DNA of 64,000 nt from Ignisphaera sp. (GTDB lineage Archaea > Thermoproteota > Thermoprotei_A > Sulfolobales > Ignisphaeraceae): contig JAPWTX010000002.1 in the NCBI GenBank assembly GCA_028275825.1, positions 23,206-87,205 on the forward strand, in the 5' to 3' direction. Both the position numbers and the translations under genes were made by a program. This document shows, in pieces, positions 9,188-50,983 of the stretch. The notes beneath the pieces are model-generated. The model made no database searches. It saw only the letters and a list, made by a program, of their open reading frames with translations, and was not told where the DNA came from. Position 1 is the stretch's first letter. Each line of letters begins with the position of its first letter.

Positions 9188-9226
9188 AACCAAAAGCCTC
9201 GCCCTTTATGGCGGAGAGGAGGTCAG
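9188..9226 (+). mobile_element. 39-bp fused left-end/right-end IS200/IS605 mini-element
   Basis: TTAC|AACCAAAAG-CCTCGCCCTTTATGGCGGAG-AGGAGGTCAG: left-end start and right-end terminus around one hairpin. Confidence 0.65.
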
Positions 9227-10830: not shown

Positions 10831-11243
10831 TCAATATTTATGCTACTCTCGATCGGTATATTAATTTTACAGCGTCTTCAATGATAACACCATCGTTTTG
10901 GCGTAGATAGTCACTTATGCTACCCTAGATCTCTAAACATGTATATCTGAACTAAACACTAATAACAATTTTGTGCCTATGCCTTATCTCTTCATTATAG
11001 CTGTTATAACGAATAAACTTAAAATAGTTTCACAAAATATACATACATAATCATGAATATAGGTGTTGTAAATGAGCATCCCAAGATCAAGTAGATATCA
11101 ATTGTTACCACATTGCGCTACACACGCTAAAGATTTGATCATTGTAGCTACATGTGATGGTGCTTCAAGTACTGGGCAAATAGCTGACCTCCTCCCCGCC
11201 CTAAAGGGCGAGGGTTCCTGCGAGGGCGGTTCACAGGTTCCCC

Positions 11244-12404
11244 TCATCTATTCGGGGCTACATCTGTCATTTGAGGGGCATTCAGGGGGGTCAGAGCTCC
11301 CCACATCTTGATTAAAGCCCTCTTCTCAATGTTTAGTACTGCTACAGTATCTCTATTGGCTTCGAAACCGCATCTAGAGCACCTCAATCTTCTATAGCCG
11401 TTCTCGATAAGCTTAGAGCTACACATTGGGCATGTTGATGATGTGTTCTTTGGGTCTACAACAATTAGTGGCACCCCATTTTTCTCGCACTGCCAGTCAA
11501 TCCAATGCTCCAACATTCTATAGCTTAGTATTAACAGAGAGACTCTGTGTTCCTTTGGAAGCTTCCTAAGACTCTCTACCAAATTTGTCAAGTCCTCTCT
11601 AGCAACTGCATATTGATACTGCTTTGCTAGAGACACAATTGTATGGGATACCTTCTTAACACAGTCTTCAACAATGTTCCTAGCCTTTCTGTGGAAATAT
11701 CTCCTCCTCTCTACAATGCCTCTCCTCCTAAGCCAAGCGTTGTATTTGGGGGAGGAGTACCTCTTTTGGAGGTTCTCAGCTAATTGTTTATAATGCAGAG
11801 CTCTTCTAACAGCTGTTTCAAACCTATATTCAATTTTACCATTACCGATAACAATCTGCCTCTCGTTAATATCAACAGCTAGAATGCCTCTAGGTATATA
11901 CTTAGCTGGCTTGAGTACACGCTTAGATATCCCTAGAATGAACTTGCCATCCTTAAATAACAGTATTGCATCTCCATTTGGATAATTGTCATATCTCATG
12001 TCCCAGCCAATAATCCTGAGCCTAAAGCCTCCAAGAATCTCAACATAGCTATCTCTAACCCTGTAGCTGTATCTATGTGTTAGCCAAATCCTAGGTGTTC
12101 TAGCCCTAGGCACCCTACCCCTATTAGGATTCCCAAGCCAAGACTTGGCAATTGCAATAGCCTCTCTATAACAATCCTGAGCAACTTTAGAAGGAAGACC
12201 ATACCTCTCCTTAAGAACGCTGTATAATAGCTTATGGGCTTTGCCAAGGCTTAACGCTTTATTCTCGATAACCACCTTAATAGCGTGGTTAAGTGCCTCT
12301 CTATACCTCTTCATCAAGCTTACTAGCTCTTTAAACAAGCTGGGCTCAGGGCTAACCCTCATCTTAATGGTCAGGGTTAGCAAACCCTCACAGCCCAGAG
12401 CCAT
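11244..12404 (-). CDS. tnpB: TnpB RNA-guided nuclease with apparently intact RuvC triad
   Basis: RuvC-I LAVDIN, RuvC-II AREDL, zinc finger CPMC...CSRC, RuvC-III NRDTVAVLN, C-terminal PQMTDVAPNR overlapping the right-end RNA. Confidence 0.95.
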   Translation of the reverse strand: MALGCEGLLTLTIKMRVSPEPSLFKELVSLMKRYREALNHAIKVVIENKALSLGKAHKLLYSVLKERYGLPSKVAQDCYREAIAIAKSWLGNPNRGRVPRARTPRIWLTHRYSYRVRDSYVEILGGFRLRIIGWDMRYDNYPNGDAILLFKDGKFILGISKRVLKPAKYIPRGILAVDINERQIVIGNGKIEYRFETAVRRALHYKQLAENLQKRYSSPKYNAWLRRRGIVERRRYFHRKARNIVEDCVKKVSHTIVSLAKQYQYAVAREDLTNLVESLRKLPKEHRVSLLILSYRMLEHWIDWQCEKNGVPLIVVDPKNTSSTCPMCSSKLIENGYRRLRCSRCGFEANRDTVAVLNIEKRALIKMWGALTPLNAPQMTDVAPNR

Positions 12405-12406
12405 AC

Positions 12407-12529
12407 CTACTCAACCCTGTTCCTAGCTATGTTGACCTTTCTGAAGCAATTTGGGCATGTGGCATAGTACTGCTTTCTCCCCTTGTAGTCCCAGACATAC
12501 CCACACTTGGGGCATTTAAGCTTTACCAA
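12407..12529 (-). CDS. 40-aa zinc-ribbon protein inside the tnpB element (not in ORF track)
   Basis: TTG start after GGTGGT; MVKLKCPKCGYVWDYKGRKQYYATCPNCFRKVNIARNRVE*; stop 2 nt before tnpB ATG. Confidence 0.8.
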   Translation of the reverse strand: MVKLKCPKCGYVWDYKGRKQYYATCPNCFRKVNIARNRVE

Positions 12530-12578
12530 CCGACCACCAACCAACTAGTAGAGAAAAACACCTTATGAGCTTTTCTAT

Positions 12579-12618
<40 letters not shown>

Positions 12619-17086: not shown

Positions 17087-17343
17087 GATAAGTTTAAATA
17101 TCTGTAAACAGCTGTAAATACTTGGCTCTTAGAGTAATGCTTAAATAACTCTCCACTTTATAATTTCTCGGATGACCCGCACTGCGGTGACATGGAGAAT
17201 CAGATGGGAGCCCAGTGGCGTTGGGCTCGACAGGCACCCATGGAGTGTGGGTGATGCTAGTGAACCCACACAGAGGTGCAACCCCGCTAACGGGATTACA
17301 AATATTTACAAATACCGCCAAGTACCGTTAGCGGGGAAACGCT
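17087..17343 (+). mobile_element. Non-coding repeat family F4, copy b
   Basis: GATAAGTTTAAATATCTGTAAACAGCTGTAAAT left end, TTATAA, GGATGACC-stem-GGTGAC motif, GGGGAAACGCT end. Confidence 0.75.
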
Positions 17344-17429
17344 GCTTAAGACCTCCTCACAAAGCTCCTTGACCTCTTTCACATAGTCATATATAAATGG
17401 GTTTACGAAGACGCTCTAGATATGCTCAC

Positions 17430-17692
17430 AAATGGAAGCCTCGCCTTTTAAGGCGGGGAGGTGCTTTATTGCCACCATAAAATATCTGAACAAAAATTTA
17501 TAAACTTTTTTGCCCCAACACTTGTTTTTGGTGTTGGGCGCGGGCGAGCTTAGCAGGCTATGAGCCTGCACCTCCCCGAAGCTGGCGGCGGGGCCTGAAA
17601 AAATGATGCCACACCCGTGAGGGGCTCCTGATAGGTGAGGGAGAGCCCTAGTGGGTGCAGAACCCTCGCCCTTTAGGGCGGGGAGCCGTCAG
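17430..17692 (+). mobile_element. 263-bp IS200/IS605 MITE (family F2a): left end, TATA, omegaRNA-like region, right end
   Basis: TCAC|AAATGGAAG-hairpin; TTTATAAA; interior matches 50825-50983; GAAC-hairpin-GAGCCGTCAG. Confidence 0.88.
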
Positions 17693-17977
17693 CTTCTACT
17701 CAGCATCGATACTGGCAATAGTTGTTATACTCCACGACGCATTGCTATTATCAGCTCTAAAAGCATGTCTACACCATAACATAGCTAGAAAAGCAATTAC
17801 AAATGTATTATAAGGAATTGCAAATCTTCTACAGATAAAATGTGTCTCTGTAATAAGAGATAGCGTAATAAAACCAAAAGGTGTTGCAATGAGAGTTATA
17901 GGGAAGTTATGTGCCTATGGAGTTAAGTAACTATTATTAGAAATATTGTGGCTTAGGATAAATTAAAAAGTTTTAGG

Positions 17978-38831: not shown

Positions 38832-39601
38832 TTGTTTAGCATGTGTTCATACTCTTCATAAGCGTCTCTAAGCACCTCTATGAGTTTCTGCTTAGCTCCA
38901 TAGGTATAGAACTTTTCAATAATTCTTATTGTGACTCCTCCAGGTGTTATCACGCTATCCCTTATACTACTTACCTCCTTAAGCGCCGTCAATGCTCCCA
39001 CACCTTGAAAAACAGTGGCAATTGCTTTTCTAGCTACATGATAAGGTACGCCTGCTTTTAGAGCTGAGAGCAGGAATGCGTCGTAGAGTTCAGCTACTAT
39101 GGCTGGCGTTGAAGCTGAGAAGAATGTGAGCATGTCCAAAACCTTTTCATTTACCCACATAACCTCTCCCAAAACTCTAAAAACCTTTTCGACAACATCA
39201 TTCTTTCTTTCCGCAGGTGTTAGAGCTGTAAAGCCTTTGTTTATCTCTACAGCTATATTTGGCATAGCCCTGTAGACCATGGACTTAGGCACAATGCTTT
39301 CGAGAACCTTTAGCTTTATGAGTGCTGCTATGGATACCACTACCTTTCCGCTCACTTCATCAGCAAAGCTTTTCAAAGCCTTCTCCACATCACCAGGTTT
39401 AACAGCAACTATAACTACATCAGCTTGTCTTGCAGCCGAAGAGGCGCTTTCACTCGTTTTGAAACCGAGTTTTGAAGCCTCTTCCAAGACCTCAGGAAGC
39501 ATATCGTAAACAATTATAGACTCTTTATCTATGTTCGCTCTTGAAAGACCCAATGCAATTGCTTTTCCCATTCTTCCAAAACCTATCACAGCGATCTCCA
39601 T
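38828..39601 (-). CDS. proC: Pyrroline-5-carboxylate reductase
   Basis: IGFGRMG, VAVKP, RAMPN, VITPGGVT motifs. Confidence 0.92.
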   Translation of the reverse strand: MEIAVIGFGRMGKAIALGLSRANIDKESIIVYDMLPEVLEEASKLGFKTSESASSAARQADVVIVAVKPGDVEKALKSFADEVSGKVVVSIAALIKLKVLESIVPKSMVYRAMPNIAVEINKGFTALTPAERKNDVVEKVFRVLGEVMWVNEKVLDMLTFFSASTPAIVAELYDAFLLSALKAGVPYHVARKAIATVFQGVGALTALKEVSSIRDSVITPGGVTIRIIEKFYTYGAKQKLIEVLRDAYEEYEHMLNN

Positions 39602-50431: not shown

Positions 50432-50983
50432 TTGAGGCTTCGCCCTTCAGGATGAAGAGGTTTTTATCAAGAATATCAGCGAGTAGGAAGGGGTTCTGGT
50501 TTCATCGGGCTTGATGTTGTTTGGTATCAAGCCCTCTCCCCTTGGCTTCACAGCCCTCAGAACCCCTCTTCATCAGGATCCATATCACTGGGCTCCACAA
50601 CTCGGGGCGACCCCTACCCACAGCCCCCTTTTCTCCGGGTCACTGCTGTGGGGTAACCCCTGCATCCTGGCTCCTCCTCAAACCCACCTCTCTTGGATCT
50701 TCGCGATATACCCGCATCTCGAGGCATCTCCCCAATAGTGGAGGGATCAACAACCCTTATAACTATATGAAAACCAAAACAGCCGCAAAAGGCTTATGGA
50801 CTTTTGCCTACAGGTAAAAATATTGATGTTGGGTGTAGACGAGTTTAGCAGGCTATGAGCCTGCACCTCCCCGGGGCTAGCGGCAGGGTCTGAAACAGTG
50901 ATGCCGCATCTGTGTGGGCTTCTGATAGATGAGGGAGATCCCATGTGTGCAGAACCTCGCCATTTATAGCGAGGAGCCGTCAG
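50432..50983 (+). mobile_element. Decayed F2 MITE (copy b) interrupted by F6b
   Basis: Degenerate left hairpin near 50432-50460; 50825-50983 matches 17530-17692 and ends GAGCCGTCAG. Confidence 0.7.
50490..50793 (-). mobile_element. Non-coding repeat family F6, copy b
   Basis: Direct match to 18773-19087. Confidence 0.88.

Follow-up and report, generated by a model that had tools for sequence, protein, structure and literature searches.

A TATA-bearing IS200/IS605 MITE and its inverted-tnpB parents: a candidate stand-alone omegaRNA for a very divergent archaeal TnpB

Why should a transposon derivative of a few hundred base pairs, in which no ORF of at least 60 aa can be found (17430-17692), carry a TATA box of its own in front of a GC-rich module that reads outward through its right end? 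The element lies in a stretch of 64,000 nucleotides (the window, C42:23206-87205) of an archaeal genome of 1.81 Mb, 86 contigs and ~40% GC (G000), with close relatives in the public record that are Desulfurococcaceae MAGs from hot springs. From our point of view, the module is probably a promoter-driven omegaRNA that stands alone in the MITE and is used in trans, with TCAC as TAM, by a TnpB encoded elsewhere in the genome, a reading in which we infer the RNA-protein pairing, the TAM and the cleavage. In the following, F2 denotes the family of the MITE and its ~1.48-kb parents and F1 the canonical tnpB sister family; the features of the window to which the argument refers are these:

11184-12611, minus strand: F1 element, with TTAC/AAAG left end, zinc-ribbon ORF, tnpB (12404-11244), HgcC-type omegaRNA overlapping the tnpB 3' end, and GAAC...TCAG right end
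17426-17429, plus strand: TCAC, insertion target and predicted TAM; homologues of the empty site are gapless across the junction between TCAC and C
17430-17473, plus strand: left end, consisting of the spacer AAATG (17430-17434), the DNA guide GAAG (17435-17438), a hairpin (17439-17458) and 15 nt common to the full-length parents
17474-17496, plus strand: deletion junction, at which ~1.2 kb of the parents (tnpB and small ORF) is absent from the MITE, by comparison with C82:10138-11617
17497-17504, plus strand: TATA box TTTATAAA with an A-run and a T-run on either side, palindromic in the parents and at fixed spacing to GTTGGG
17530-17692, plus strand: predicted HgcC-like omegaRNA scaffold of ~163 nt, 65% GC in a 40% GC genome (HgcC score, covariation and R1 score)
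17660-17692, plus strand: right end, with the DNA guide GAAC (17660-17663), a hairpin (17664-17683) and the cleavage tetranucleotide TCAG (17689-17692)
17693-17712, plus strand: predicted guide segment in the 3' flank, CTTCTACTCAGCATCGATAC, positioned by analogy with TnpB omegaRNAs
39003-39129, minus strand: uninterrupted, empty proC-like paralogue of the insertion site, ~21 kb from the MITE, reading GCTCAC and then ATTCT..., by alignment to the joined flanks
50823-50983, plus strand: second F2 RNA module and right end, without left end and with degenerate TATA (152 bits with our model R1)

The element, its insertion site and its parents

The MITE spans 17430-17692 (263 bp), directly 3' of TCAC, and each feature listed for it in the initial annotation, namely TCAC, AAATG/GAAG, the hairpins, TTTATAAA, GAAC, TCAG and the flank, is found where it had been placed. 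The two hairpins (17439-17458, CCTCGCC-TTTTAA-GGCGGGG, and 17664-17683) are subterminal and imperfect, point in one direction and are almost the same as in the tnpB element, and the MITE is without terminal inverted repeats. Hairpins, guide/target pairs and insertion without duplication confirm what had been proposed, namely that it is a non-autonomous IS200/IS605 element (MITE/PATE).

The insertion site is a decayed pseudogene fragment of a proC-like (pyrroline-5-carboxylate reductase) paralogue, preserved at 17396-17429 and 17693-17840. When the flanks of the MITE were joined in silico, they aligned without a gap across the junction both to the proC-like gene of a congener (79% identity) and to the paralogue within the genome; the insertion is hence exact, between TCAC and C, and without target duplication. 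Insertion 3' of a tetranucleotide without duplication is the signature of the IS200/IS605 family. The base 3' of TCAG is C in 13 of 13 F2-type copies and variable after F1 right ends, and the empty homologues of the MITE site have A there (a synonymous third position); the invariant C may reflect a preference for targets in which TCAC is followed by C. Another repeat family (window 17300-17343) ends beside the MITE and is covered by contigs of the metatranscriptome X23 at a depth of 6-7.

Among the other copies in the genome, the nearest (C37) measures 262 bp and is located at a different TCAC site, those on C11 and C51 measure ~237 bp and the one on C9 ends at the contig end; several right-end halves are also present, including the one at 50823-50983. 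The C11, C51 and C9 copies form a subfamily in which the F2 5' part (AAATGGAAG and hairpin) is followed by an F1-type left-end promoter segment, ATGGGTAGAAAAGCTTATAA, that is fused at the TATA box to the F2 RNA module, which suggests recombination or deletion between TATA boxes.

Two longer elements, C82:10138-11617 and C42:91676 to the contig end, share with the MITE its first 44 nt and its last ~212 nt, the second being cut by the contig end such that only the first 38 module positions are present. For positions 1-44 of the MITE, identity is 100% to C82:10138-10181 and 98% to C42:91676-91719. Between the shared ends, both parents carry ORFs of 48 and 364 aa on the opposite strand, the larger of which extends at its 3' end through the hairpin of the left end. 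As judged from these alignments, the MITE is a derivative of the ~1.48-kb F2 parent element by an internal deletion of ~1.2 kb. We also considered whether the longer form arose when a foreign tnpB element inserted into a MITE, and rejected this, since the ORF passes through the left-end hairpin and a second pair of ends is absent.

Paired changes in DNA guides and targets

The F1 and F2 left ends had been noted to combine different DNA guides with different targets, and this covariation holds throughout the genome. In a genome-wide hairpin scan, 18 left ends with AAAG were found, of which 18 have TTAC upstream (5 nt upstream in most), and TCAC precedes all seven left ends with GAAG (six sites from the scan and a seventh at C42:91676, which escapes the scan pattern due to a hairpin mismatch). 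The F2 copies were checked for exceptions, as the initial annotation had suggested, and are all preceded by TCAC. TCAC is likewise located 5' of copies in two other assemblies (L055 and L056; Bin S23 and RSNS19), and two MITEs from another GTDB family, whose flanks are otherwise unrelated, have sequence in common from TCAC onward, consistent with the same target.

TCAC adjoins the element in four of the seven GAAG ends and lies five bases further out in the remaining three. The five extra bases in front of the AAATG start read CACAC in C11:5426-5667 and in C51:28620-28860 and CTAAC in C82:10133-10147. As the C11 and C51 copies have TCAC plus CACAC in common despite otherwise unrelated flanks, the extra bases belong to the subfamily and TCAC is still the target. 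It is possible that they represent flanking sequence that was captured after an off-target insertion and a subsequent cleavage at the upstream TCAC.

In IS608, position 2 of the target pairs with position 1 of the guide, and position 4 of the target with position 4 of the guide. The Helicobacter pylori element reportedly combines TTAC with AAAG at its left end and TCAA with GAAT at its right end, and is said to have been retargeted experimentally by a change of the guide. The same rule accounts for TTAC/AAAG, TCAC/GAAG and TCAG/GAAC in the present genome and for TCAT/GAAA in a relative. This last pair replaces GAAC/TCAG at a right end of G183 (L094, 3161-3196; guide GAAA, terminus TCAT) and represents a second natural compensatory change under the same rule. 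In contrast to IS608, the two sister families occur naturally side by side in one archaeal genome and have near-identical hairpins, and their target and guide are separated by a spacer of variable length (5 or 10 nt). As such, specificity appears to be modular, given that a single base of the DNA guide and a single base of the target distinguish F1 from F2, and each sister family comes with a different TnpB and, presumably, a different TAM (TTAC versus TCAC). In the MITE, the GAAG guide of the left end would direct insertion and cleavage 3' of TCAC.

Across the two families, the left and right hairpins are 91-100% alike: the F2 left-end hairpin is 91% complementary to the left end of the minus-strand F1 element at 12582-12616, and a 26-nt stretch of the F2 right end is 100% complementary to the F1 right end at 11192-11217. 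One TnpA could hence move both families to different sites. The F1 element itself has TTAC at 12615-12612, AAAG at 12606-12603, a terminus of the form GAAC-hairpin-GGAGGAGGTCAG and a TnpB of 386 aa. Its zinc-ribbon ORF (40 aa, CPKC...CPNC; 12407-12529, minus strand) lies just upstream of tnpB, in the position that tnpA would take in an autonomous element. An element of this autonomous type (tnpA-tnpB) is present in the congener G001 (C85), where it combines TTAC/AAAG and GAAC...TCAG with the same hairpins.

Single-hairpin mini-elements of ~39 nt also occur (window 9190-9226; in the same genome C22:7278, C25:34103, C36:657, C36:11138 and C71:43058). They have the order TTAC, AACTG-AAAG, one hairpin and AGGAGGTCAG, that is, the 5' half of a left end fused to the 3' half of a right end, and are probably recombination products of the near-identical left and right hairpins.

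Movement of the MITE would require a Y1 transposase in trans, and a profile search for TnpA (PF01797) in its own genome gave no match, hence the element may be immobile at present. This leads to the first of three alternatives to a guide RNA of F2 TnpB, namely that the MITE is a decaying relic without function, whose promoter and RNA persist only because the copy is young. The genome without TnpA, the location of the MITE in a proC-paralogue pseudogene fragment and the truncated or degenerate state of several other copies (window 50823-50983, C25, C38, C28 and C57) would all fit such a relic, which we nevertheless regard as unlikely, because copies that are 4-25% different keep the TATA box and, through compensatory changes, the helices, because the genome retains two intact F2 tnpB genes, and because the C37 copy, 96% identical at another TCAC site, indicates fairly recent mobility.

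The module as a probable structured RNA distantly related to HgcC

If the MITE is not a relic, the question arises what its conserved interior encodes. The initial annotation had read it as an omegaRNA, and the interior indeed proves to be a conserved, structured, RNA-like module related to the RNA of the canonical tnpB 3' end and right end, for which Rfam holds the model HgcC (RF00062). The MITE module aligns over the full model with 20.6 bits (E 0.0065) and the F1 tnpB 3' end plus right end (11171-11304, minus strand) reaches 48 bits (E 3.7e-10), which, with a gathering threshold of 50 bits, places the former well below and the latter just below the cut-off. The HgcC consensus terminates in the same hairpin and GGAGGAGGUCAG as the right ends here, whereas the F2 module differs from HgcC in its 5' half and in its terminus, GAGCCGUCAG.

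HgcC is an orphan family of high-GC ncRNAs of hyperthermophilic archaea. It has been treated as an archaeal ncRNA gene family and linked to the right-end tetraloop of IS1341-type elements (Gomes-Filho et al., 2015, PMC4615843). By its match to the F1 element, HgcC looks like the omegaRNA of the F1 TnpB group, which would suggest a candidate function for a family that was described in 2002 and is still annotated as being of unknown function.

An alignment of 13 module sequences (A1; from the same genome, G001, two genomes of another GTDB family and Vulcanisaeta) gave a consensus of 43 pairs in 8 helices, with compensatory changes in 18 of the 43. All five measures exceed those of 500 out of 500 shuffles (0/500 match). 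The proportion of paired cells is 92.8% on the top strand, compared with 43-48% in slid controls and 81.7% on the bottom strand. Our model R1 scores the MITE module with 197.7 bits. As to how the scaffold is closed, double changes were found within A1 neither for a TGATG/CGTCA helix nor for a pseudoknot between the loop CUGGCGG and the 3' CCGUCAG; F1 has CUGACC/GGUCAG as an analogue of the closing pairing, and it is solely this between-family comparison that would favour a long-range pairing closing the scaffold. A C/D-box sRNA was also considered for the ATGATG/CTGA motifs and was rejected, as the region has no C/D-box match in Rfam.

The TATA box that had been assigned to the element is conserved as well. 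In 13 of the 15 copies and relatives, it precedes the conserved GTTGGG by 30-35 nt, and this fixed spacing would place the transcription start near 17530. In one small metatranscriptome set from a mixed culture, contigs with ~4x depth that are 95-99% like the MITE cover 17473-17693; these unstranded contigs start upstream of the TATA box and run 100 nt past the right end into another flank, and they leave uncovered the tnpB body and the left end, the part with the highest abundance in DNA runs. They give a weak indication of, and are compatible with, expression of the module, and DNA carry-over or read-through could also explain them. A search for RNA-seq runs for the Vulcanisaeta copy returned none.

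By position and strand, the module lies at the right end and reads outward, such that the 3' flank would form the guide. Transcription driven by the TATA box from ~17530 would thus read through the right end into the flank and yield an omegaRNA with the guide CTTCTACTCAGCATCG... Recognition of TCAC plus guide, which corresponds to the empty site, and its cleavage by the TnpB-RNA complex would then favour retention or homing of the MITE. Elsewhere in the genome, a site consisting of TCAC and the guide with up to 3 mismatches in 16 was searched for and not found; the nearest candidate target is the proC paralogue, with 4 mismatches in 16, two of them at positions 1 and 6.

An inverted tnpB and a probable guide RNA in trans

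The initial annotation had predicted a second TnpB lineage whose gene would end in the sequence of 17530-17692. A tnpB with such a 3' end was searched for in the genome and not found, as the matches are either MITEs or inverted-tnpB parents; what does exist is a second, very divergent TnpB lineage that is physically linked to the module (C82:10138-11617 and C42:91676). The order of an F2 parent is left end, tnpB and small ORF (both pointing leftward), palindromic TATA box (GAGCAAAAAG-CTTATAAA-CTTTTTGCTC), module (pointing rightward) and right end. In all parents, tnpB hence runs against the direction of the module and terminates at the left end, and no tnpB 3' end overlaps the F2 module. We also considered, and rejected, that the tnpB 3' end and left end of F2 conceal a further omegaRNA: synonymous-codon identity in this part amounts to 0.70-0.72 versus 0.48-0.69 elsewhere, which is no clear excess, and on the tnpB strand of this part there was no match to Rfam or R1.

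The inverted order recurs in G001, G269, G024 and Vulcanisaeta sp. JCM 14467, with TnpB amino acid identities of 90%, 60%, 33-38% and 51%, respectively. Overall, module and F2 TnpB clade are found together in six elements, which come from five genomes and represent at least three GTDB families. Further out in the clade, five members show a match to the 3' half of R1 just downstream of tnpB, on its strand; each of these matches is weak (E 3e-4 to 3.3), and they are consistent in place and strand, which argues that the RNA type goes with the protein clade even though the gene order differs. The tree, which is rooted on a long outgroup branch, settles no ancestral gene order in the clade.

The protein encoded by the F2 parents (364 aa) scores 33.7 bits with the Cas12f1-like TNB zinc finger of PF07282 (cut-off 26.3). 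With the other TnpB genes of the genome, which holds at least 17 TnpB-like genes, it has only the zinc-finger region in common. More than 100 clustered relatives are found in hot-spring metagenomes, Vulcanisaeta and Thermofilum. An AF2 model (pLDDT 84) gave AsCas12f, ISFba1 TnpB and ISDra2 TnpB as the best PDB matches in Foldseek (E 8e-12 to 8e-11), and on the basis of this model the protein is a very divergent TnpB with a Cas12f/TnpB fold. Among 31 clade members, D167 and D268 are invariant and D343 is nearly so, which results in a D-D-D triad. Since the middle RuvC residue is D and not the canonical E, and since the C-terminus is short, nuclease activity of F2 TnpB is not assured. The clade would offer a candidate nuclease that is compact (~364 aa), stems from hot-spring archaea that are presumably thermophilic, and comes with a predicted TAM and a defined RNA.

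Similar to ISDra2 (PDB 8exa, 8h1j), F2 combines a protein of TnpB/Cas12f fold with a right-end RNA that reads outward, for which the flank would be the guide and the TAM would be expected to equal the target of the transposase. In contrast to ISDra2, the F2 gene is inverted and its 3' end is free of overlap with the RNA, and the protein has D-D-D instead of D-E-D, a short C-terminus and a weak score of 23.7 bits with the NCBIfam model guided_TnpB (cut-off 100).

PATEs that encode omegaRNAs, need TnpB in trans and have clade-specific TAM and guide motifs have been reported for the ISGst family of Geobacillus stearothermophilus (Meers et al., 2023, PMC10055086), and a PATE-derived RNA, VNG_R0052, is known from Halobacterium (Gomes-Filho et al., 2015, PMC4615843). 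The present MITE resembles these in that it is protein-free, has a left and a right end as well as a target (predicted TAM) and DNA guide of its clade's own, would be moved in trans and would provide an RNA for a TnpB encoded elsewhere. With omegaRNA-encoding PATEs and the link between HgcC and right ends both on record, the MITE itself is of an already described type. It differs from the known PATEs in that the F2 RNA has its own TATA promoter in MITE and parent, and in that the parental tnpB lies on the other strand, such that the RNA never overlapped the gene. A non-exhaustive literature search for an inverted tnpB, a non-overlapping or detached omegaRNA and a shared symmetric promoter gave no hits, hence the inverted-tnpB parent with a separate RNA and a shared symmetric promoter is apparently undescribed for such transposons.

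It is the co-location of module and tnpB from which the pairing of the RNA with F2 TnpB is inferred. One could hence imagine, as a second alternative, that the RNA is made and does not guide F2 TnpB, and that it instead (i) serves another TnpB, (ii) regulates the divergent tnpB operon, or (iii) binds L7Ae via its kink-turn-like ATGATG/CTGA motifs. Such a role is suggested by the 17 or more TnpB-like genes, by the motifs and right-end hairpin that the module shares with the F1 omegaRNA and by the non-canonical triad of F2 TnpB; however, the other TnpBs share no more than the zinc finger with F2, F1 has its own overlapping RNA and a TTAC target, and the linkage of the module to the F2 clade extends over several genomes and families, with a related module downstream of the more distant clade tnpBs. 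The shared palindromic promoter would agree with coupled regulation, and the missing C/D-box family match in the region speaks against this alternative. Taken together, we hold it to be quite unlikely that the RNA is made for a role other than guiding F2 TnpB.

The third and weakest alternative, according to which the conserved 160-nt structure acts as DNA only, as a single-strand fold of the right end for excision and integration by TnpA, is in keeping with the folded single-stranded ends on which IS200/IS605 transposition relies, with G-T wobbles that form in DNA too, with a structure on the same (top) strand that TnpA uses and with weak support for transcription, but is very unlikely, given that IS608 transposase needs only the subterminal hairpin and its guide, that mini-elements of 39 nt with a single hairpin occur in the same genome, that the TATA box, whose spacing is fixed in 13 of 15 copies, would have no role, and that the homologous canonical region matches HgcC, an archaeal ncRNA family.

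Returning to the probable guide RNA of F2 TnpB, the cognate nuclease would be supplied to the MITE in trans from two loci (C82 and C42:91.7k), at which tnpB and the small ORF would be transcribed divergently from the same palindromic TATA box. A wider reading, which we put forward tentatively and to which we give somewhat less than even credence, is that in the F2 clade the gene of the guide RNA became free-standing, with its own symmetric TATA box and divergent from an operon of small ORF and tnpB, and that it spreads alone in the form of MITEs that act as extra guides for a nuclease in trans, with part of HgcC being guide RNAs of TnpB. If true, the F2 arrangement would be a natural intermediate between transposon-bound omegaRNAs and the separate guide RNAs of Cas12. 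A guide RNA that is uncoupled from the nuclease gene would explain how RNA-only MITEs arise and stay useful to the element, and the uncoupled architecture of the parents bears on the origin of separate guide genes in Cas12-type systems.

The small ORF upstream of F2 tnpB (~48-58 aa; C82:11229-11375, minus strand; MAVFRARLSSHGGGRLIIYIPK...) is conserved, with homologues in L057, L061 and L063. That of the G024 copy shows a weak match to MazE/AbrB (E 2.6e-4), and the AbrB/MazE-like product may be a regulator that acts at the palindromic TATA box.
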